Positions 6,039-47,384 of a DNA stretch of 64,000 bases are shown here, piece by piece. How positions within the stretch are numbered: position 1 is the first letter of the stretch; each line of letters starts with the position of its first letter. The position numbers and the translations under genes were made by a program. The stretch is from Candidatus Nanopelagicales bacterium (GTDB lineage: Bacteria; Actinomycetota; Actinomycetes; S36-B12), in assembly GCA_044240195.1 (NCBI GenBank), contig JBIHZX010000001.1, forward strand, positions 117 through 64,116. Direction: 5' to 3'. Below the pieces are notes generated by a model. It was not told the DNA's origin and searched no databases. It saw only the letters and a list, made by a program, of their open reading frames with translations.

Positions 6039-6884
6039 ATGTTTACATCCTTGGATTCGCTGCTGAATAGTCATGAAGCCGGCCAACTCGCCTGGGAGTG
6101 CGCCCAAAGCGCTGGGGCGTTTTTGAAGAATGAGAGGCCCCGTAATCTCAACATTGAGACCAAATCGAGTGGGTCTGACCTCGTTAGTGAAATGGACCGA
6201 GGGGCGGAGGCGTTAATCGTGGACGTGATAATCGCATCACGGCCCGATGATTCCATCTTGGGTGAAGAGGGCTCGAATCGAATAGGGACTTCAGGAGTGC
6301 GATGGATTATTGACCCTTTAGATGGAACGACGAATTATCTATTCGGAATTCCGCTCTGGGGAGTATCCATCGGCGTCGAAATTGACGGGGTTGTGCAGCT
6401 GGGGGTCATTGCTATTCCTGAATCAAACAAAAGTTATGTAGGTATCGCGGGCGTGGGTTCATTCTGTGTGAGTGGTGAATCGTTGCAAATACTGAAAGTC
6501 CGTCGTGGTAGCCAACTCAAAGATGCCCTACTGGCGACTGGATTCGGGTATTCACCCGTTCGTCGCGGATTGCAGGCGGACGTTGTTGCCGCCGTTCTCC
6601 CACAGATCGCCGATATCCGAAGGTCCGGATGCGCCGTTGTTGACCTGTGTTGGCTGGCAAGTGGATTCACCGACGGCTATTTCGAAATTGGTCTTAATCC
6701 CTGGGACTACGCTGCGGGAGCGCTCATCGTTTCCTTGGCGGGAGGTCGAGTGGAGGCTCCGATCGACGGCGACCTCGGTAAACTTTTAATTTCAAGCACG
6801 CCAGAAATATTCGATGAATTGGAGCGGGTACTCATGGCAGCTGGCGCACATGACCTGTTAATCAAGGAGTCGCATTTCCGCTGA
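6039..6884 (+). CDS. inositol monophosphatase family protein
   Basis: Motifs ILGEEG and WIIDPLDGTTNY, plus the C-terminal WDYAAG. Confidence 0.85.
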   Translation: MFTSLDSLLNSHEAGQLAWECAQSAGAFLKNERPRNLNIETKSSGSDLVSEMDRGAEALIVDVIIASRPDDSILGEEGSNRIGTSGVRWIIDPLDGTTNYLFGIPLWGVSIGVEIDGVVQLGVIAIPESNKSYVGIAGVGSFCVSGESLQILKVRRGSQLKDALLATGFGYSPVRRGLQADVVAAVLPQIADIRRSGCAVVDLCWLASGFTDGYFEIGLNPWDYAAGALIVSLAGGRVEAPIDGDLGKLLISSTPEIFDELERVLMAAGAHDLLIKESHFR

Positions 6885-38361: not shown

Positions 38362-39432
38362 ATGAAACTATCAGTCAACCTTGGATATTGGGGCGCGGGA
38401 AACGACGCGGACAATTTAGAAGTTGCTCGAGAGGCCGACCGCCTGGGCTATTCGTGCGTCTGGGCCGCTGAGGCTTATGGCTCCGATGCTGCAACTGTTC
38501 TCACTTGGATTGCCGCCCAAACCAAGCAGATTGATGTTGGTAGTGCAATTTTTCAGATCCCAGGGCGGACTCCGGCAAATACCGCCATGACAGCCGCAAC
38601 CTTGGACACACTTTCTGGTGGTCGCTTTCGACTGGGACTTGGTGTTTCTGGACCACAAGTTTCTGAAGGCTGGCACGGCGTACGATTCACAAAACCTTTG
38701 CAAAGAACCCGCGAGTACGTGGACATTGTGCGAATGGCACTTTCACGCCAGAGGGTTCAGTACGACGGCGAATTTTTTACCCTGCCTCTGCCCGATGGCC
38801 CCGGGAAGGCACTCACGCTCACGGTTCACCCAGTCCGCGAAAACATTCCCATTTACTTGGCCTCCATTGGGCCCAAAAACCTCGAACTGACAGGTGAGAT
38901 CGCTGACGGGTGGTTGGCCATCTTTTTTTCACCCGAGCATGCTTCTGAGCTTATGAAGCCTCTCATCGCTGGCCGCGAAAAATCGGGAAAGACGATGGAA
39001 GGCTTTGACGTTGTTCCCACCGTGCCTGTGGTGCCCGGAGAAGATGTTGAAGAGTGCGCCAACTATGTGCGCCCCTACGCAGCCCTGTATATCGGTGGCA
39101 TGGGTGCAAGAGATAAGAATTTTTACAATCAGCTGGCCACGCGCATGGGGTATGAAGAAGCAGCGATTGAAATTCAAGATCGTTATATGTCAAAGGACTA
39201 CGCAGGTGCTGCAGCCGCTGTCCCTTTCGAATTCATCGATGCTACCTCACTCATCGGGCCGCCTGAGCGAATCGCGAAACGCTTACCCGCCTATGCAGAA
39301 GCTGGCGTGACCAATCTAAGTGTTGCCTCCTTCGCCGGAACCTTGAAGGAACGTGTGGGAACTTTGCATGTGATGAAAGATGTTCTCAAGAGTTCTGGCT
39401 TGGGAGATCTGAATGCAAACGCCGGCGATTAA
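38362..39432 (+). CDS. LLM-class (luciferase-like) F420-dependent oxidoreductase
   Basis: 356 aa. MKLSVNLGYWGAG... N-terminus and ...RFRLGLGVSGPQVSEGWHG... are typical of the LLM family. F420 dependence is inferred from family membership only. Confidence 0.75.
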   Translation: MKLSVNLGYWGAGNDADNLEVAREADRLGYSCVWAAEAYGSDAATVLTWIAAQTKQIDVGSAIFQIPGRTPANTAMTAATLDTLSGGRFRLGLGVSGPQVSEGWHGVRFTKPLQRTREYVDIVRMALSRQRVQYDGEFFTLPLPDGPGKALTLTVHPVRENIPIYLASIGPKNLELTGEIADGWLAIFFSPEHASELMKPLIAGREKSGKTMEGFDVVPTVPVVPGEDVEECANYVRPYAALYIGGMGARDKNFYNQLATRMGYEEAAIEIQDRYMSKDYAGAAAAVPFEFIDATSLIGPPERIAKRLPAYAEAGVTNLSVASFAGTLKERVGTLHVMKDVLKSSGLGDLNANAGD

Positions 39433-40262
39433 TGGAAATGACGTGGTTTGAAGCAATCGTTTTAGGCACTCTTCAAGGTCTGACCGAGTTCCTGCCCATT
39501 TCTTCTTCAGCACATCTACTTATCTTTAGTCAGTTTTTCGGTTGGACAGATCCTGGAGCTGCCTTCACCGCGGTGAGTCAAATTGGTACCGAGCTCGCCG
39601 TGATTGTGTACTTTTGGCGTGATATTCGGCGAATTGTGTCAACATGGTTGCGGTCACTGGCAGATCCAGCGCTGCGTAAGTCACTCGATGCCCGAATGGG
39701 CTGGTATGTGATCGTTGGAACAATTCCAGTGGCGGCGCTTGGTTTTACATTCTCGAGTCAGATTGAGACTACGGCCCGGAATCTTTACCTCGTAGCCACG
39801 ATGTTAATTGTCTTTGGAATTATCCTTGGCCTAGCGGACCGCTACGGCCGCAAAATAAAGTCGATTGATCGGCTCACGTTCCCTGATGCCATCGCATTTG
39901 GCTGCGGTCAGGCGCTTGCATTGATTCCTGGCGTGTCTCGCTCGGGTGCAACGATCACGACGGGATTAGCGTTGGGCTATGACCGAGTCGCCGCAACGCG
40001 ATATGCGTTTCTACTCGCAATTCCAGCGGTGCTTGGTTCTGGGCTATATGAGGCAACGAAAATCTCGGATCAACAAAACACGCAATGGGGTCAGACCATC
40101 CTCGCAACAATAATTGCCTTTTTTGTTGGACTAGGTGTTATTGCATGGCTACTTCGATGGTTAACGACACGTACCTACACACCATTCGTGATTTACCGGG
40201 TTGTGCTCGGAGTTCTGGTGCTGGTGTTGCTGTCCACCGGCGCACTAACTTCCGGCAGTTAG
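39432..40262 (+). CDS. uppP: undecaprenyl-diphosphate phosphatase
   Basis: GLTEFLPISSSAHL and PGVSRSGATI motifs. 276 aa. Confidence 0.92.
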   Translation: MEMTWFEAIVLGTLQGLTEFLPISSSAHLLIFSQFFGWTDPGAAFTAVSQIGTELAVIVYFWRDIRRIVSTWLRSLADPALRKSLDARMGWYVIVGTIPVAALGFTFSSQIETTARNLYLVATMLIVFGIILGLADRYGRKIKSIDRLTFPDAIAFGCGQALALIPGVSRSGATITTGLALGYDRVAATRYAFLLAIPAVLGSGLYEATKISDQQNTQWGQTILATIIAFFVGLGVIAWLLRWLTTRTYTPFVIYRVVLGVLVLVLLSTGALTSGS

Positions 40263-41293
40263 AGCCATCCGCTTTTTTTAAACCCGCGAAACAGAAGACC
40301 GCAAGTGATAGCCATGAACGCCAAAACGAAGTAGTAGCCGTAATCGCTCTTGAGCTCAGGCATATTTTCAAAATTCATCCCGAAAATACCTGCGGTCAGA
40401 GTAGGAACGGCCGCAATCGCCACCCAAGCAGAAATTTTACGCATATCTGTGTTCTGCTTAAGGTCTTGCAAGGCGGTTGAAGCCATCAGCATTGTGAGCA
40501 GTGCGTTGTCGGTACTTTCTACCACGTCATTTACGCGCAGAATGTGATCACCTATATCAGCAAAAAATGGTTCTAATTCTTGTGGAATAGAATCGTATGT
40601 TTCATTAGAAAATTTCTGTGCGGCGTTAACCAGGGGTGCTGCGGCTTGGCTGACAGCGATATTTTCCCGCTTCAGTTGATAGATATTCTTTGTTGTCACT
40701 GCCGTTGGCTGCATTGAAAAAACATCTTGTTCAATTACACGCATATCTTCATGAACGTCCTCGGATACTGCGAGATAGGTATCAACTGTAATATCCATAA
40801 CGGCGTAGAGAACGGCAAGTGGCCCATGTTTTCTGAGTCGTTCATCATGAGACATTCGTTTGCGCACATTTGTGAGGTCGCCAGCGACACCGTACCGAAC
40901 CGTGATCGCGAACCATTCGCCGACAAATACTGAAGTCTGTCCTGTTGTCACTTCCCGGCTATTGGCGTCGTATGACAATGTCTTGAGTAATGCAAAGCCC
41001 TCACCATTATTCAACTCAAACTTAGCGCGTTGGGTAACATTGGCGGCGTCTTCGACGTCGAGCGGTTCGAGCGCAAAAAGTTCAGTCACCAAGGACAACT
41101 CAGCCGCGGTGGGGGAAACCAAACCGAGCCACACAAAGGACCCCGTATCAGCTTTAACCTGGGATATCAGGTCGGTTATGGCGACTCGAGCTTCCTGTGC
41201 TGCAGCGTCATCGGGGGCAATAACGTCAATCGGCGGCATGTGCTGATGCTCAAATTGGCCGTCGGCTGAATACCGTCCCATACGTCGGATCAT
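40259..41293 (-). CDS. corA: magnesium/cobalt transporter CorA
   Basis: GMNF motif (IFGMNFENMPEL) before the last TM helix. 344 aa. Confidence 0.88.
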   Translation of the reverse strand: MIRRMGRYSADGQFEHQHMPPIDVIAPDDAAAQEARVAITDLISQVKADTGSFVWLGLVSPTAAELSLVTELFALEPLDVEDAANVTQRAKFELNNGEGFALLKTLSYDANSREVTTGQTSVFVGEWFAITVRYGVAGDLTNVRKRMSHDERLRKHGPLAVLYAVMDITVDTYLAVSEDVHEDMRVIEQDVFSMQPTAVTTKNIYQLKRENIAVSQAAAPLVNAAQKFSNETYDSIPQELEPFFADIGDHILRVNDVVESTDNALLTMLMASTALQDLKQNTDMRKISAWVAIAAVPTLTAGIFGMNFENMPELKSDYGYYFVLAFMAITCGLLFRGFKKSGWL

Positions 41294-41392
41294 TTGCCCA
41301 TTGTGTCAGTGAATGCGGGCATCTTTCCGCCCCACGCGAACACCTCCAAAATATATATGGTCAAAATCGATCTCGGCACTACGTTAGGGGGC

Positions 41393-42088
41393 ATGGCTAC
41401 GGTTTTGTTGGTTCGTCACGGGCGGACAAGTGCCAATGAAAAGGGAATATTGGCGGGAACTGCACCGGGGACGGTTCTTGACAGTCGTGGAATCGAGCAG
41501 GCTCAGCATTTGGCCGAACTGTTATCAGGTCTTGAGGTATCCGCCATCATTTCCTCACCTCTCGAGCGCACCGTGCAAACAGCCGAGGCCCTTGCTACAA
41601 CTTTGGTGAATAAATCCGGTGACGGATTAGAGATTTCGATCGATTCGGGCCTGTCAGAGTGCGAGTACGGTGATTGGACCGGCCGAAGCTTGAGTGAATT
41701 GGCCCAAGAGGACTTGTGGCGCGCGGTTCAAGACCACCCGGCGTCAGTGGTTTTTCCCGGTGCGGAGGGAGAATCAATGGCGCATATGGCGCACAGAGCC
41801 GTTGCTTCTATTCGGCATTGGAATGACTTATTGGGACCCGATTCTGTCTATGTGGCTGTTTCCCACGGCGATGTCATCAAGGCGATCATTGCCGATGCAC
41901 TCGGAATTCATCTCGATTTGTTCCAACGAATCGGGGTTGATCCAGGCTCGGTGAGTGTTATTAATTACACGCCTTCCCGTCCCTTCGTATTGAGTACAAA
42001 TGGCAATGGATCTGATATCCGCAGGCATGTAAGCGTTGCACACAAGAGTAAGAGTGATGCTCCAGTGGGAGGTGGGTCCGGTGACTAG
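41393..42088 (+). CDS. histidine phosphatase family protein (MSMEG_4193-type putative phosphomutase/phosphatase)
   Basis: RHG motif LLVRHGRTSAN and second His in VSHGDVIKA. I chose ATG 41393; the track start 41294 abuts corA. Confidence 0.8.
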   Translation: MATVLLVRHGRTSANEKGILAGTAPGTVLDSRGIEQAQHLAELLSGLEVSAIISSPLERTVQTAEALATTLVNKSGDGLEISIDSGLSECEYGDWTGRSLSELAQEDLWRAVQDHPASVVFPGAEGESMAHMAHRAVASIRHWNDLLGPDSVYVAVSHGDVIKAIIADALGIHLDLFQRIGVDPGSVSVINYTPSRPFVLSTNGNGSDIRRHVSVAHKSKSDAPVGGGSGD

Positions 42089-42650
42089 ACGGGTCATAGA
42101 ATACCGTCTGCCTGAGCGCTTTGTTGTCGGAACCGTCGGTATGCCGGGTGAGCGAACATTTTATTTACAAGCGAAATCAGCCGGTGCACTAACAGCCGTT
42201 GCTTTTGAAAAGCAGCAAGCGATTGTTTTAGCTGAGCGAATCGATGACTTACTCGATGAAGTTCGGGCCAGCAGAGATCCCGGTGGAGTGGTGCCTGAAA
42301 GTGCACCACTTGAGCTACTGGATGCAGAACCTTTAGATATGCCTCTTCTCGAAGAATTCCGGGTAGGAGCGATGGCATTAGGTTGGGATGAAGGCAGTTC
42401 GTGTGTTGTGATTGAAGCGCATGCAATTGCCGATGAAAGTGACGAGGTCCCAGAGTTAGGCGAGGACGGCGATGAAGGACCCGACACGCTTCGAGTCTGG
42501 TTGAGCGCCCCCTATGCACGCGCATTCGCTGATCGAACCCATCGGGTCGCGCAATCGGGTCGGCCGCCATGCCCCTTTTGCCAGCAACCACTCGATCCAG
42601 AGGGTCACATTTGTCCGAGGGCCAATGGATACAAGCGACGAGACTTCTAA
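42081..42650 (+). CDS. DUF3090 domain-containing protein
   Basis: ...PERFVVGTVGMPGERTFYLQA... N-terminus, and a C-terminal CPFC...HICPRANGYKR Zn-ribbon-like motif. GTG 42081 overlaps the upstream stop by 8 nt. Confidence 0.7.
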   Translation: MTRRVIEYRLPERFVVGTVGMPGERTFYLQAKSAGALTAVAFEKQQAIVLAERIDDLLDEVRASRDPGGVVPESAPLELLDAEPLDMPLLEEFRVGAMALGWDEGSSCVVIEAHAIADESDEVPELGEDGDEGPDTLRVWLSAPYARAFADRTHRVAQSGRPPCPFCQQPLDPEGHICPRANGYKRRDF

Positions 42651-43407
42651 CTCGATTTTCAAGGGCACCCTTGAACCCATTGGGCAATTACGAGACGCGA
42701 GTAATGGCTCCCTCCTCTGCCAGGACGACAGCGAATCTCTTTTTGTTTATAAGCCCGTCGCGGGTGAACGTCCACTATGGGATTTTCCCGAAGACACGCT
42801 GTCCGGGCGTGAAGTAGCTGCAGCAAATCTTGATGGGTTATTGGGTTGGGGCTTAGTCCCACCAACACGTTGGATTCCTGACGGACCGGTAGGGCCGGGC
42901 ATGGTACAGAAATGGGTAGATGAAGTGGATGAACTTCGTCCCGTAAACATTTTTGACGCGCAGAGTGCCCCCTCGGGATGGTTGATAGTTTTGGAAGCAG
43001 CGGATCAAAGAGGTAACCCGGTGGTGCTGGCGCATGACTCCAGCGAGTCACTCATGCGCATGGCTCTCTTTGACGCGATTGTGAATAACGCGGATCGTAA
43101 AGCGGGACATGTTTTGGCGGATTCAACCGGCCGAATCTTCGCCATCGATCACGGAGTGTGTTTCAATGAGGAGCCGAAATTGCGCACCGTTCTATGGGGT
43201 TGGGTGGATCAACCGATCTTAGAGCTTGACCTTACGACCATCGAAGTACTACAGCGAACACTCGGTGATTTTCATGACCAGATTGACCCGTATTTGACTC
43301 TCGCTGAATCACATGAATTGCGACAAAGAATCGCCGGATTGCTCAAAACACAAATGTTTCCGCAACCGAATACGCAGTGGCCGGCTATTCCATGGCCGGT
43401 GTTTTAA
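42625..43407 (+). CDS. SCO1664-family protein (PI3/PI4-kinase-like fold)
   Basis: Catalytic-loop-like NNADRKAGHVL and AIDHGVCF (DFG-equivalent). ATG 42625 overlaps the DUF3090 gene by 26 nt. Confidence 0.7.
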   Translation: MDTSDETSNSIFKGTLEPIGQLRDASNGSLLCQDDSESLFVYKPVAGERPLWDFPEDTLSGREVAAANLDGLLGWGLVPPTRWIPDGPVGPGMVQKWVDEVDELRPVNIFDAQSAPSGWLIVLEAADQRGNPVVLAHDSSESLMRMALFDAIVNNADRKAGHVLADSTGRIFAIDHGVCFNEEPKLRTVLWGWVDQPILELDLTTIEVLQRTLGDFHDQIDPYLTLAESHELRQRIAGLLKTQMFPQPNTQWPAIPWPVF

Positions 43408-43438
43408 GCACCCTGAAATCAACCGGTAGGCTCACAGT

Positions 43439-44665
43439 ATGCAGAGTTGGTTGGAGCCGGTAAACCCAAAACTCCCAGGAATGGGTCGCGACCTCCGACT
43501 GTTTGACTCGGCAACCCAATCTATCCGGCCGACAGCTCCGGGGAAGATCGCAAAAATTTATGTCTGTGGGATAACTCCGTATGATGCGACGCATATGGGG
43601 CACGCCAACACCTATGTGGCATTTGACCTGTTAATCCGGGTTTGGCTTGATTGCGGAATTTCCGTCAACTACGTGCAAAATGTTACCGATATTGATGAGC
43701 CTCTACTGGAACGGGCAATCGCCACCGGTCAGGATTGGCGTGAGATCGCCAATAGAGAAACGGCATTGTTTCGTGAGGACATGCAGGCCCTCGGAGTCAT
43801 CCCTCCCCAGCATTACATCGGGGCTGTTGAATCAATCCCACAGGTGGCTGAGCACGTACTGCAATTGCAGAGCGCGGGCAAAACTTACGCACTCGACGGC
43901 GATATCTATTTCACAATTGAGAAGGCACCTCTTTTTGGATCGATTTCACACCTGACTCGACCCCAGATGCTTGATATTTTTGGTGAGCGAGGTGGTGATC
44001 CAGAACGCACCGGGAAAATTGACCCACTTGATCCGTTGCTGTGGAAGAACGAGAGGCCCGATGAACCCGCATGGAACACGGTTCTTGGTCACGGACGTCC
44101 GGGGTGGCATATCGAATGTTCAACAATTGCTTTGACCTATTTGGGAGATCAGATCGATGTTCAGGGAGGTGGATCTGACCTTGTCTTCCCGCATCATGAA
44201 ATGAGTGCAGCCCAAGCAGAAAGTCTGACCGGTGTTGAGCCATTCGCACGGTTCTATGTCCATTCAGGGATGGTTTCTTGGCAAGGGCACAAAATGTCAA
44301 AATCACGCGGGAATTTGGTTTTCGTTTCAACTTTGCGCCATGAAGGCATTGATCCGGCTGCGATCCGGCTGGCGCTATTGGCACACCATTACCGCGCTGA
44401 CTGGTCGTGGACCCCGCAAGGGTTGGAAGGCGCGCTGTCCAGACTTGACCTTTGGAGGGCAGCGACGAGTCTGGAATCTGCCATGGACGCCGAACCCGTT
44501 CTGGATCGTGTGCGCGAGGTCATGTCTGATGACTTAAAAACCCCAAGTGCACTTGACGCAATCGATAACTGGGCGCGAGACTCTCTGCACGCTGGAGGTT
44601 CTCACCCTAATGCTCCTGGGCTAGTCAAAGCCCTGTGTGCAAGCCTGCTGGGTGTGTATCTTTAA
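43439..44665 (+). CDS. mshC: L-cysteine:1D-myo-inositol 2-amino-2-deoxy-alpha-D-glucopyranoside ligase (mycothiol ligase)
   Basis: CysRS-like HIGH (ATHMGHA) and KMSKS motifs, but only 408 aa with no anticodon-binding domain. It sits in the conserved phosphatase/DUF3090/SCO1664 context. Confidence 0.88.
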   Translation: MQSWLEPVNPKLPGMGRDLRLFDSATQSIRPTAPGKIAKIYVCGITPYDATHMGHANTYVAFDLLIRVWLDCGISVNYVQNVTDIDEPLLERAIATGQDWREIANRETALFREDMQALGVIPPQHYIGAVESIPQVAEHVLQLQSAGKTYALDGDIYFTIEKAPLFGSISHLTRPQMLDIFGERGGDPERTGKIDPLDPLLWKNERPDEPAWNTVLGHGRPGWHIECSTIALTYLGDQIDVQGGGSDLVFPHHEMSAAQAESLTGVEPFARFYVHSGMVSWQGHKMSKSRGNLVFVSTLRHEGIDPAAIRLALLAHHYRADWSWTPQGLEGALSRLDLWRAATSLESAMDAEPVLDRVREVMSDDLKTPSALDAIDNWARDSLHAGGSHPNAPGLVKALCASLLGVYL

Positions 44666-45705
44666 TCTGTTTTCTCATCATGTCCACCAAAACCCTTGCG
44701 CATGGCGCTAAGGATTTGGTTAGCAAACTGATCTTTGCCCTGTGAAGCAAATCGGGAAAACAACGCCGAGGTTAAAACCGGTGTTGGAACTCCTTCTTCG
44801 ATCGCTGCGATCGAAGTCCAACGACCCTCGCCCGAATCAGAAACACGACCCGAGAACTCCGTGAGCTCGGGACTCTGAGCCAATGCGGCTGCGGTGAGGT
44901 CGAGTAGCCATGAACTCACTACGGAACCGCGACGCCAAACTTCGGCGACTGCGGGGATATCAATGTCGTATTGATAAAACTCTGGATGGGAAAGTGGAGC
45001 AGTTTCCGCGTCATGCTCTGAATCTCGTGAACCTTCCGCGCCTGAATTGGCGTGCTTGAGAATATTAAAACCTTCCGCGTAAGCTGCCATGAGCGCGTAT
45101 TCGATTCCGTTGTGAACCATTTTCACGTAGTGCCCAGCGCCACTTTGTCCGCAATGCAACCAACCGCGCTCGGCGGCACTCTCCGGCTGAGAGGAATCTG
45201 TGCGCGGAGCTGATTCGACACCGGGCGCTAATGAATCCCATAGGGGAGTGAGGGCGTTTACCTGCTCGGATGATCCGCCGATCATGAGGCAATAGCCGCG
45301 TTCTAAGCCCCAGACGCCACCGGAGGTCCCGACGTCAATGAACGAAATCCCCTGGGCTTGCAACTGATGCGAATGGGCAATGTCGTCACGGTAGTAGGAG
45401 TTTCCACCGTCGATAATCGTATCGCCCGGTTCGAGCAAGACTGCAAGTTCATCGATCACACTTTGTGTTGGAGGGCCGGCGGGAACCATGATCCAAACTG
45501 TCCGAGGCGCTGGCAGAGCCGCAACTAGTTCGGGCAGTGAGTCAGCTCCGCGAACGCCATAAACATTTAGCTGTGATACCAGGTTGGGATTACGATCAAA
45601 ACCCACAACGTTGTGACCAGCAGCTGCTGCGCGCCGACTCAGATTTGCGCCCATTCGACCCAAGCCAACCATGCCCAGACTCACGTTCGCGCTGTGTTCA
45701 ACCAC
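44662..45705 (-). CDS. gnd: 6-phosphogluconate dehydrogenase, decarboxylating (short YqeC-type form)
   Basis: Rossmann motif MVGLGRMGANL, ...GHYVKMVHNGIEY.... 347 aa. Confidence 0.85.
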   Translation of the reverse strand: MVEHSANVSLGMVGLGRMGANLSRRAAAAGHNVVGFDRNPNLVSQLNVYGVRGADSLPELVAALPAPRTVWIMVPAGPPTQSVIDELAVLLEPGDTIIDGGNSYYRDDIAHSHQLQAQGISFIDVGTSGGVWGLERGYCLMIGGSSEQVNALTPLWDSLAPGVESAPRTDSSQPESAAERGWLHCGQSGAGHYVKMVHNGIEYALMAAYAEGFNILKHANSGAEGSRDSEHDAETAPLSHPEFYQYDIDIPAVAEVWRRGSVVSSWLLDLTAAALAQSPELTEFSGRVSDSGEGRWTSIAAIEEGVPTPVLTSALFSRFASQGKDQFANQILSAMRKGFGGHDEKTD

Positions 45706-45764
45706 GATGACTCCTTAAATCTGGGTAACACGGGACTTGATCCAACATATGCAAGACTAGATGA

Positions 45765-47384
45765 GTGACCGATCCCACCACCACCCCTGCTTGGAAAACT
45801 CTCGAGGCCCAGAGCGCCATCATCGCTCCGATACGAGATTTGGTCGATCACGACAGAAGCGAATTCCGAAACACGGTAGCAGGGGTTGAGGCTGATTTCA
45901 GTAGGCAGCGCATTGATTCCACGGTGTGGAGAGACCTCAAAGCACTTGTTGATCAATGTGATGTCGCTCGGTCGCGCGATGACATGTTTGCTGGTGTTCA
46001 TGTCAATACGACGGAGGGTCGCGCCGTGTTGCACACAGCGCTACGACTTCCCCGGGATTCAGTATTGCTCGTGGACGGCGTTGACATCGTGGAGCAGGTT
46101 CATGTAGTTCTTGACCAAATGGCAGTTCTTGCAGAGCGCGTACGAGATGGATCCTGGAAAGGATTTTCAGGTAAACGAATTACATCTGTGGTAAATATTG
46201 GAATCGGTGGTTCAGATCTCGGGCCCGCTATGGCCTATCGCGCACTGCGTGCTTACAGCGATCGGTCTATCGCAATTCATTTCGTGTCAAATGTTGACCC
46301 GACGGATCTCACTGAGACCCTAAGACTCTGCGATCCTGAATCGACGCTTTTCATAATTGCATCAAAAACATTTACGACTACCGAAACAATGTTAAATGCA
46401 CAGCAGGCAAGTAGCTGGGTTCATGCGGCCTATGAAACAGAGGCCATAGGTGACGTTGTTGCTCGGCATTTTGTCGCTTTGTCAACGAACGCTCAAGCCG
46501 TAGCGGACTTTGGGATAGACCCCGCCAATATGTTCGGTTTCTGGGATTGGGTCGGAGGCCGTTATTCGATGGAATCAGCAATCGGTTTGAGTACCATGAT
46601 TGCCATCGGTGCTGATCGGTTCCATGAAATGCTGGAAGGTTTTCACGCAGTAGATCTGAACTTTGCAAATGAACCTTGGGAAACAAATGTGCCCATGCAG
46701 ATGGGCGCCCTGGCTGTATGGAATAGGAACTTTCTCAAAATCGAAACGACCGCGGTTCTTCCATATTCACAGTACCTCTCTCGCTTCCCCGCTTACTTGC
46801 AGCAACTCACCATGGAGAGTAATGGCAAAAGCGTCCGCTCTAATGGCGAGAGTGTGGGGTACAACACGGGAGCAATATATTGGGGTGAACCAGGAACGAA
46901 CGGGCAACATAGTTTTTATCAACTTCTTCATCAGGGAACGAGTGTGGTTGCCTGTGACATCATCGTGATAGCTCGAGCGCAACATAACTTGGGTGAGCAA
47001 CAGGATGTTTTGGTCGCCAATGCACTCGCACAGGCATCGGTTCTTTCACTTGGAATTAGTGCGGAACAGTTAGCTGAAAGTGGTGTATCGGCGGACGTGA
47101 TCCCGCACAAGGTTATGCCAGGAAATCGCCCTGTGAGCCTCATGCTCTGTCAGGACTTGAATCCGTACACACTAGGAGTGCTCGTTGCCCTTTATGAGCA
47201 TTCCACTTTCGTGCAAGGAGCTATTTGGGGGGTTAATTCATTCGATCAATGGGGCGTTGAATTGGGTAAGAAAGTTGCAACCGGAATTGAAGATTCCTTT
47301 AGTGGCCCGACGCCCTCGCACAACTTCGATGCAAGTACTGAGTATTCCATAAATAGATACTTGCAACTACGCGAGAAAAGTTAA
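45765..47384 (+). CDS. pgi: glucose-6-phosphate isomerase
   Basis: 539 aa. ...IGIGGSDLGP..., ...SKTFTTTET... and ...GEPGTNGQHSFYQL... are PGI signatures. Confidence 0.93.
   Translation: MTDPTTTPAWKTLEAQSAIIAPIRDLVDHDRSEFRNTVAGVEADFSRQRIDSTVWRDLKALVDQCDVARSRDDMFAGVHVNTTEGRAVLHTALRLPRDSVLLVDGVDIVEQVHVVLDQMAVLAERVRDGSWKGFSGKRITSVVNIGIGGSDLGPAMAYRALRAYSDRSIAIHFVSNVDPTDLTETLRLCDPESTLFIIASKTFTTTETMLNAQQASSWVHAAYETEAIGDVVARHFVALSTNAQAVADFGIDPANMFGFWDWVGGRYSMESAIGLSTMIAIGADRFHEMLEGFHAVDLNFANEPWETNVPMQMGALAVWNRNFLKIETTAVLPYSQYLSRFPAYLQQLTMESNGKSVRSNGESVGYNTGAIYWGEPGTNGQHSFYQLLHQGTSVVACDIIVIARAQHNLGEQQDVLVANALAQASVLSLGISAEQLAESGVSADVIPHKVMPGNRPVSLMLCQDLNPYTLGVLVALYEHSTFVQGAIWGVNSFDQWGVELGKKVATGIEDSFSGPTPSHNFDASTEYSINRYLQLREKS

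Follow-up and report, generated by a model that had tools for sequence, protein, structure and literature searches.

A phosphatase–DUF3090–kinase gene trio upstream of mshC in a Candidatus Nanopelagicales bacterium and its relatives in Actinomycetota and Chloroflexota

The 64,000-nucleotide (nt) stretch of DNA considered here (the window), from contig JBIHZX010000001.1 of a Candidatus Nanopelagicales bacterium (assembly GCA_044240195.1), carries between positions 41393 and 44665 a run of four genes on one strand. The first three, which we call the trio, encode a branch-1 histidine phosphatase, a DUF3090 protein and a SCO1664-family protein with the fold of phosphatidylinositol (PI) 3- and 4-kinases (PI3/PI4-kinases), referred to below as the phosphatase, DUF3090 and the kinase; the fourth is mshC. 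A preliminary description of this DNA had reported the four genes together with their overlaps, the gap before mshC and the motifs of their products, all of which we recovered. Here we describe the architecture and distribution of the trio and weigh what it might do.

Four co-oriented genes ending in mshC

By family models, the trio of the window is an unremarkable ortholog of the three-gene system that TIGR03848, TIGR03847 and TIGR03843 already describe. This bears out the earlier statement that it is a conserved cassette known by family names. The phosphatase scores 267.8 bits against TIGR03848 (cut-off 203.85), covering profile positions 1-203 of 204, and matches Pfam His_Phos_1 with an E value of 9e-46. 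DUF3090 reaches 217.1 bits with TIGR03847 (cut-off 117.25) and 204.5 with the Pfam DUF3090 model (PF11290; cut-off 27), and the kinase scores 306.5 bits with TIGR03843 (cut-off 172.4), its score with Pfam PI3_PI4_kinase being borderline at 27.4 versus a threshold of 27.1. All three are full-length members of their families. Their order and their linkage to mshC and uppP match those of the actinobacterial system, from which nothing essential differs; the window lineage does have an opposite-strand corA gene between uppP and the phosphatase gene. In named genomes the trio presumably corresponds to Rv2135c-Rv2134c-Rv2133c, to MSMEG_4193-4191, and to SCO1664 with its neighbours. The fourth product scores 600.9 bits with the MshC model TIGR03447 (cut-off 485.1) and 290 bits with the cysS model. 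It has the HIGH and KMSKS motifs of class-I enzymes and lacks the tRNA anticodon-binding extension (408 amino acids (aa) versus the 466 positions of the cysS profile). The features are collected in Table 1.

Table 1. Genes and motifs at the trio locus (window coordinates)
Feature	Position	Strand	Product length	Description and motifs
Histidine phosphatase	41393 (ATG)-42088	+	231 aa	MSMEG_4193/Rv2135c family, branch-1; RHG nt 41414-41422 (aa 8-10); SHG nt 41861-41869 (aa 157-159)
DUF3090	42081 (GTG)-42650	+	189 aa from GTG	CPFC nt 42570-42581; HICP nt 42606-42617
SCO1664-family protein	42625 (ATG)-43407	+	260 aa	PI3/PI4-kinase fold (predicted); VYKP nt 42745-42756; NNADRKAGH nt 43084-43110; IDHG nt 43144-43155
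mshC	43439-44665	+	408 aa	Cysteine:GlcN-Ins (glucosaminyl-inositol) ligase; HMGH aa 52-55; KMSKS aa 285-289
uppP	39432-40262	+		Undecaprenyl-diphosphatase; NF001392 346 bits; context only, outside the claimed module
corA-like gene	40259-41293	-		Between uppP and the phosphatase gene

The phosphatase and DUF3090 genes overlap by 8 nt and the DUF3090 and kinase genes by 26 nt, and 31 nt separate the kinase gene from mshC. The start of DUF3090 is ambiguous: the GTG at 42081 is preceded by the Shine-Dalgarno-like GGAGGTG, and the family profile opens at residue 5, while an in-frame ATG at 42057 would give a protein of 197 aa and an overlap with the phosphatase gene of 32 nt instead of 8. Public calls for DUF3090 in close relatives are 197-207 aa long, which fits a start upstream of the GTG. 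The phosphatase gene could likewise start further 5', at a TTG at 41294, the additional stretch falling outside the family profile. Neither a terminator-like nor a sigma-70-like promoter site was found between the four genes, so co-transcription is plausible, and from the overlaps we infer that the genes of the trio may be translationally coupled. Over 6.6 kb (39300-45900), matches to the sigma-70 consensus numbered 0 versus 5.3 expected from shuffled sequences, which probably reflects promoters that are not of the Escherichia coli type rather than an absence of promoters. The mshC gene of Corynebacterium glutamicum has been reported to possess its own SigH promoter, 141 nt upstream.

Predicted architecture of the three proteins

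The RHG and SHG catalytic motifs are kept in the phosphatase orthologs of both Actinomycetota and Chloroflexota, and by these motifs the phosphatase is catalytically intact. Its nearest solved relatives are CobC and PspA-type phosphatases, and the structure of GpgP (PDB 4pz9) is a detectable relative (E 1.8e-7); these nearest characterised relatives all act on small molecules. The phosphatase is also weakly related in sequence to the phosphatase domain of 6-phosphofructo-2-kinase/fructose-2,6-bisphosphatase (1bif and 3bif, E 3.5e-5). The preliminary description had stated that the trio has no experimentally defined function. For DUF3090 and the SCO1664 family this stands, as our literature search returned no paper that gives either of them a function, and the published phenotypes of DUF3090 orthologs that it returned are incidental entries in transposon-sequencing and interactome tables. 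For the phosphatase it needs amending, since the ortholog from Mycobacterium tuberculosis, Rv2135c, has been purified and assayed. It runs as a tetramer and lacks phosphoglycerate mutase activity, so that phosphatase rather than mutase activity has been demonstrated for it; it hydrolysed p-nitrophenyl phosphate, phosphoenolpyruvate, fructose 6-phosphate and glycerol 1-phosphate as a weak acid phosphatase with Km values of 8-14 mM, and was inactive on glucose 6-phosphate, 3-phosphoglycerate and ADP (PMC3866925). Rv2135c has also been detected in membrane fractions. Where the phosphatase of the window has RHG, the M. tuberculosis protein has RHA.

Searched by sequence against all PDB chains, neither the kinase nor DUF3090 gave a match even at an E value of 10, and what can be said of their folds comes from AlphaFold2 models. 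The kinase was modelled with confidence (predicted local distance difference test (pLDDT) 92, predicted template modelling (TM) score 0.90), and the model shows a minimal kinase resembling type II PI 4-kinases (PI4K). Its top Foldseek match is the catalytic domain of human PI4K II alpha (4hne, E 2.8e-8), in agreement with the resemblance to inositol-lipid kinases that had been noticed earlier from motifs; the next matches are FAM20 kinases, PI4K II beta, PI4K III beta and PI3Ks. Across 36 Actinomycetota sequences and the Chloroflexota orthologs, three residues are invariant, the ATP-binding K43 of VYKP, the catalytic-loop D157 and the metal-binding D175 of IDHG; the C-terminus is conserved as WPAIPWPVF. 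Because a kinase fold is predicted and these three residues do not vary, the SCO1664 protein is very probably an active phosphotransferase.

The likeness to type II PI 4-kinases (PI4K2A and PI4K2B) extends to the motifs. We take the sequence of PI4K2A to line up with that of the window kinase at the lysine of (V/F)xKP, the DRxxx(N/H) loop and ID(N/H)G. The two differ in that the window kinase is only 260 aa long, aligns with modest TM-scores (0.57 and 0.45), lies just at the Pfam threshold and has no known membrane-anchoring element, while FAM20 protein and xylose kinases are almost as close to it. It also departs from the canonical DRHxxN/DRxxxN loop: the loop reads DRKAGH with an invariant His162 at the position where PI kinases presumably have Asn, and a further His replaces the Asn of IDNG. 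A HipA-like kinase directed at MshC as a class-I aminoacyl-tRNA synthetase paralog was considered and set aside as a leading idea, as there was no HipA structure among the top 50 fold matches. The kinase of the window further contains an insertion of about 26 residues (aa ~111-137, window 42955-43035; DAQSAPSGWLIVLEAADQRGNPVVLAH), modelled as two strands, which is also present in Actinopolyspora and absent from two Actinomycetota metagenome-assembled genome (MAG) lineages with a short DUF3090 (L084 and L085) and from the Chloroflexota orthologs; an acidic loop in DUF3090 (aa ~116-135) is longest in the lineages that have the insertion.

With type II PI 4-kinases as the closest structural relatives of the kinase, the trio could be pictured as an inositol-lipid cycle, in which the kinase would phosphorylate phosphatidylinositol and the phosphatase would be the actinobacterial phosphatidylinositol phosphate (PIP) phosphatase that finishes PI synthesis after PIP synthase has acted. 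The membrane fractions that contain Rv2135c, and the gene for the lipid-phosphate phosphatase UppP beside it, would suit such a role, and the PIP phosphatase described from Bacteroides (BT_1525) was presented as a previously missing step of the bacterial pathway. That enzyme, however, is an unrelated protein formerly annotated as phosphatidylglycerophosphatase (PgpA), none of the three trio proteins has an evident membrane-binding segment, and the loci examined have neither a PIP synthase gene nor ino1 close by. We consider a lipid cycle improbable.

The model of DUF3090 (pLDDT 84) contains two beta-beta-beta-beta-alpha repeats, one spanning aa 5-64 and the other aa 91-158. After them comes the C-terminal CPFC...HxC segment, which is poorly ordered in the model, is predicted to form a C2HC zinc knuckle (C164, C167, H176 and C178) and is itself followed by a basic tail. 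Conservation was examined in 88 aligned full-length members from several lineages, which had been selected for the CxxC...HxC motif, so that the zinc ligands are present in them by construction. Beyond these ligands, the columns conserved in at least 95% are G160, R161, Q30 and P88. Outside the zinc site, no column of this alignment holds an invariant Ser, Thr or Tyr or a conserved residue of catalytic type, and DUF3090 therefore has the obvious marks of neither an enzyme nor a phospho-acceptor; probably it is a non-catalytic, zinc-binding partner protein. The motif EAHA of the Actinomycetota proteins is not kept in other lineages. Among 99 size-filtered representatives, 21 have no CxxC...HxC motif, and in most of these the C-terminal end seems to be frameshifted or truncated.

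The only meaningful Foldseek match of the DUF3090 model is to repeats I-II of Drosophila Pur-alpha (5fgp_A; probability 0.99, E 8e-3, TM-scores 0.43/0.55), and PUR repeat proteins (Pur-alpha, Whirly-like) have a similar pair of beta-beta-beta-beta-alpha repeats that form one domain. The resemblance is one of fold only, and a test for true homology gave no significant result: when DUF3090 was compared by hhalign with a PUR profile built from the human and Drosophila Pur-alpha sequences, which were recovered from PDB alignments and verified, the result was an E value of 0.14 over 12 columns, with just ERTFYLQAK set against KRFYLDVKQ, and a Pfam scan of 31 DUF3090 members at E 10 gave no PurA or other relevant signal. 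DUF3090 further differs from PUR proteins in having the zinc knuckle and in being acidic rather than basic, with a pI of 4.6 and a net charge of about -14 (family median pI 4.8).

These features bear on a nucleic-acid role, in which DUF3090 would bind single-stranded DNA or RNA in the manner of PUR and Whirly proteins while the kinase and the phosphatase acted on or around the nucleic acid. The double-repeat topology, the knuckle with its basic tail, and the greater rifampicin sensitivity of Rv2134c transposon mutants in bacille Calmette-Guérin (BCG), listed alongside rnhC and uvrA mutants, could all be accommodated by it. Against this, the profile comparison detects no significant PUR signal in sequence, and the strong acidity of DUF3090, which offers no basic surface for binding, argues against generic nucleic-acid binding; to our knowledge, nucleic-acid-binding PUR proteins are not strongly acidic, and we know of no polynucleotide kinase with a PI3/PI4-kinase fold. 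Of the explanations discussed here, this is the one to which we give least credence, and we regard it as very improbable.

Gene order in close and distant relatives

The closest loci come from freshwater MAGs labelled Candidatus Nanopelagicales, and all 80 related loci compared belong to Nanopelagicales-like MAGs. Wherever enough flanking DNA is available, a phosphatase gene lies directly upstream of DUF3090 (73/73 loci) and the order DUF3090-kinase-mshC is kept (65/65 loci), and in view of these counts the arrangement of the trio with mshC is not due to chance. The shared neighbourhood consists of uppP (upstream of the trio in 64/80 loci), an optional corA, the trio, mshC, a gnd-like gene, pgi and a PAC2 gene. 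The corA-like gene is missing from about a third of the loci and thus represents an insertion that varies by lineage, the rest of the block being fixed. As synteny in these relatives extends over the entire neighbourhood, adjacency alone does not show a functional link. Median identity to the window proteins is 69% for DUF3090, 64% for MshC, 56% for the phosphatase and 48% for the kinase, so that within this set DUF3090 is more conserved than its two partners and MshC. Both linkages have been remarked on before, that of uppP and the phosphatase gene as Rv2136c-Rv2135c, and that of SCO1664 and mshC in a 2013 review (PMC4255298). Several MAG records with a Nanopelagicales-type locus (L004, L070, L072, L078, L016, L018, L026 and others) are titled 'Bifidobacterium breve' or 'Rubrivirga sp.', evidently wrong labels.

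When 1.84 billion cluster representatives were searched with a profile, 2362 DUF3090 clusters emerged, which extended the comparison to distant lineages. The order phosphatase-DUF3090-kinase-MshC is kept in the divergent Actinomycetota loci L084, L085, L094 and L095, whose flanks are partly different; cluster members of L085 are named Actinomycetota, L094 and L095 carry Mpa and Pup ligase, and the MshC proteins of L084 and L085 score 464-475 bits with the MshC model versus 276-291 with cysS. Upstream of the trio, uppP is again found in L084, L094 and L095. In L094 and L095 the genes form a block of an LLM oxidoreductase, uppP, the trio, mshC and PAC2, followed at some distance by TrmI, Mpa and Pup ligase, and this block, through to Mpa/Dop, is an ancient synteny. 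In the window an open reading frame at 38362-39432 meets uppP at the shared base 39432; its counterpart in L094 and L095, matched by position, is a Bac_luciferase-family gene that overlaps BacA, after which the trio follows. In L083 the trio is followed by sugar dehydrogenases of the pyrroloquinoline quinone type.

Two arrangements depart from this order. In Actinopolyspora alba (L091:6428-9233) DUF3090, the kinase gene and mshC are adjacent and the phosphatase gene is not, the upstream neighbour being an opposite-strand peptidase S66 gene; hence, the pair that is tied to mshC there is DUF3090 and the kinase, not the phosphatase. On three independent contigs (L089:7001-8215 and L090:145-1359 among them) phosphatase and DUF3090 are fused, both domains at full length, in a single protein of 404 aa, and the kinase gene follows with a 4-nt overlap, with no mshC nearby. 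This fusion suggests that the phosphatase acts as part of a protein complex and not as a free-standing enzyme of a pathway. The phosphatase gene is thus usually the first of the cluster, once fused to DUF3090 and once missing, while tight overlaps of 1, 4, 8 or 26 nt link the genes of the trio in several lineages. The DUF3090-kinase pair, whose genes overlap or abut in most lineages, is the invariant core.

The trio also occurs outside the Actinomycetota. The kinase of L081 has 120 relatives among the matches listed, at 57-91% identity, and all 8 that are named by organism come from Chloroflexota, Caldilineae, Caldilineaceae or Anaerolineales. The full trio is present in 6/6 Chloroflexota-type loci (L081, L086, L087, L088, L092 and L093), and mshC is adjacent in none of the six. 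Downstream in all six lies instead a gene for a fusion of about 835 aa between a mannose-1-phosphate guanylyltransferase-like domain and a GlmM/PMM-like phosphohexomutase domain; in 5/6 it is followed by TsaE, directly or one gene later, and the genes upstream vary. Mycothiol is reported in a review to be confined to actinobacteria, and the presence of the trio in Chloroflexota beside a gene for nucleoside diphosphate (NDP)-hexose synthesis shows that the module is older and broader than mycothiol.

The preliminary description had proposed the phosphatase as a candidate for MshA2, the enzyme that dephosphorylates N-acetylglucosaminyl-inositol 3-phosphate (GlcNAc-Ins-3-P). This distribution bears directly on that proposal in its strict form, in which the phosphatase is MshA2 and the cassette is devoted to mycothiol synthesis and feeds mshC. 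The step was correctly described as lacking an assigned gene, as we found none in the literature and none is named in a 2026 paper; GpgP, a related histidine phosphatase, performs the analogous step of another pathway; and the substrates on which Rv2135c was tried did not include GlcNAc-Ins-P. The trio and mshC point the same way and no terminator intervenes, the adjacency is held across divergent Actinomycetota with differing flanks, and the linkage had struck the authors of the review cited above. However, it sits inside the long ancient block, so that adjacency by itself is weak evidence, and the occurrence of the trio does not follow that of mycothiol producers: the full trio is widespread in Chloroflexota without mshC beside it, and Actinopolyspora keeps the other two genes with mshC and no adjacent phosphatase gene. 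Wide occurrence of the cassette in genomes without mycothiol genes was what the preliminary description had named as contradicting its proposal, and this is probably the case, the spread in Chloroflexota being observed and their lack of mycothiol being taken from the review statement.

Moreover, a phosphatase that is simply MshA2 leaves both members of the invariant core without a role, and the fusion ties it to DUF3090. BCG and Mycobacterium smegmatis survive transposon disruption of their DUF3090 orthologs, whereas mshC is reported to be essential in M. tuberculosis, and the supplements of a transposon screen with a mycothiol-redox biosensor contain nothing on Rv2133c-Rv2135c. The sole MshA2 candidate that we found suggested in the literature is ImpC, an inositol monophosphatase (IMPase) homolog (PMC2834668). 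The window has an IMPase-family gene at 6039-6884, which the preliminary description had named as an alternative candidate; it scores 147 bits with both the HisN and the SuhB-type model, below both cut-offs. Together, the trio of the Chloroflexota, the DUF3090-kinase core and a DUF3090 that is probably non-catalytic lower the prior for a phosphatase that is MshA2 and nothing else, and we consider a dedicated mycothiol cassette improbable, even if in Actinomycetota the phosphatase might have a share in MshA2 activity.

A proposed kinase-phosphatase module around DUF3090

The trio adjoins genes for enzymes of amino-sugar and inositol conjugate metabolism (MshC) in Actinomycetota and of NDP-hexose metabolism in the Chloroflexota-type loci. 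The reading that we prefer, if only tentatively, builds on analogy with the pairs MshA/MshA2 and GpgS/GpgP. DUF3090, a stoichiometric partner without catalysis of its own, would dock or regulate the kinase and in most cases the phosphatase as well. The two enzymes would respectively add phosphate to and remove it from a hydroxyl of a small molecule of the sugar or inositol type, which might be a metabolite in free form or the head group of a lipid. The kinase would supply a phosphorylated acceptor, for instance inositol phosphate from myo-inositol, to which a glycosyltransferase encoded elsewhere would add a sugar from an NDP-sugar, and the histidine phosphatase would finally strip the phosphate from the conjugate. 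The module would then not be a dedicated step of mycothiol synthesis, and such phospho-acceptor logic would explain why it is found with mshC in Actinomycetota and with the NDP-hexose synthase/phosphohexomutase fusion in Chloroflexota. A precedent is GpgP (Rv2419c), a histidine phosphatase that finishes a glycosyl-phospho-acceptor step (PMC3240985).

Like GpgP, the phosphatase of the trio is a branch-1 histidine phosphatase, and it sits beside genes of sugar or inositol conjugate metabolism, but the trio has no linked glycosyltransferase, and it includes a kinase and a non-catalytic partner that neither of those pathways has. A second parallel is 6-phosphofructo-2-kinase/fructose-2,6-bisphosphatase, in which a kinase and a branch-1 histidine phosphatase are physically joined and between them make and destroy one phospho-metabolite; there, however, the kinase is of the P-loop type and both activities reside in one fused chain, whereas the trio has a separate kinase of predicted PI3/4K fold and a third protein.

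Several observations weigh against the phospho-acceptor scheme. Rv2135c acted poorly on the small number of sugar phosphates offered to it (PMC3866925). No glycosyltransferase, ino1 or inositol-lipid gene lies within 8 kb of the trio in the loci examined, and the fold of the kinase is shared with protein and xylose kinases (FAM20) nearly as close to it as PI4K II. The adjacency to mshC belongs to a long conserved synteny and could be inherited gene order rather than function, a caveat that applies to every reading of the trio; the adjacency in Chloroflexota, which comes from related classes that share TsaE, could be inherited as well. Finally, for a kinase and a phosphatase joined in one complex, a regulatory switch is a more natural role than that of two distinct steps in a pathway.

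Such a switch is the principal competitor. In it, the kinase would be a protein kinase and the phosphatase its opposing protein phosphatase, with DUF3090 as an adaptor or as a zinc or redox sensor, and the target would be DUF3090 itself or the product encoded downstream, MshC in Actinomycetota and the phosphohexomutase fusion in Chloroflexota. The histidine phosphatase superfamily includes protein phosphatases, among them SixA, PGAM5 and Sts-1. A kinase and a phosphatase that share a conserved non-catalytic partner, to which the phosphatase can be fused, are what one would expect of a switch; FAM20 protein kinases rank among the best matches of the kinase, the CxxC...HxC site could sense the thiol redox state, the downstream gene differs between the phyla while the trio does not, and MSMEG_4192 appears in a table of a ClpC1 interactome study. 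On the other hand, no Ser, Thr or Tyr of DUF3090 is invariant across phyla, the closest characterised relatives of the phosphatase act on small molecules, our search found no phosphoproteomic evidence, and the HipA-type kinases that target aminoacyl-tRNA synthetases are not among the structural matches of the kinase. On balance we find a protein switch rather doubtful, though clearly less so than a lipid cycle or a dedicated mycothiol cassette.

The scheme of a phosphorylated sugar or inositol acceptor can also be put in a narrower form, in which the kinase would be an ATP-dependent kinase of myo-inositol or of GlcN(Ac)-Ins that renews the phosphorylated inositol acceptor, the phosphatase MshA2 and/or the actinobacterial PIP phosphatase, which takes the inositol phosphate off after conjugation, and DUF3090 a new subunit with PUR fold and zinc knuckle that couples both. 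We think that this specific version is unlikely to be right; if true, it would fill two long-standing gaps in bacterial inositol metabolism.

In the literature searched we found no mention of the Chloroflexota context, of the phosphatase::DUF3090 fusion or of the PUR-like architecture of DUF3090 with its zinc knuckle. The trio is conserved across the Actinomycetota, where it is among the listed actinomycete 'signature' genes, and mycothiol, next to whose ligase gene it so often stands, is a drug-relevant pathway in mycobacteria. Should its substrate come to light, the trio would establish a new kind of kinase-phosphatase system in bacteria, with a PI4K-like fold at its base.

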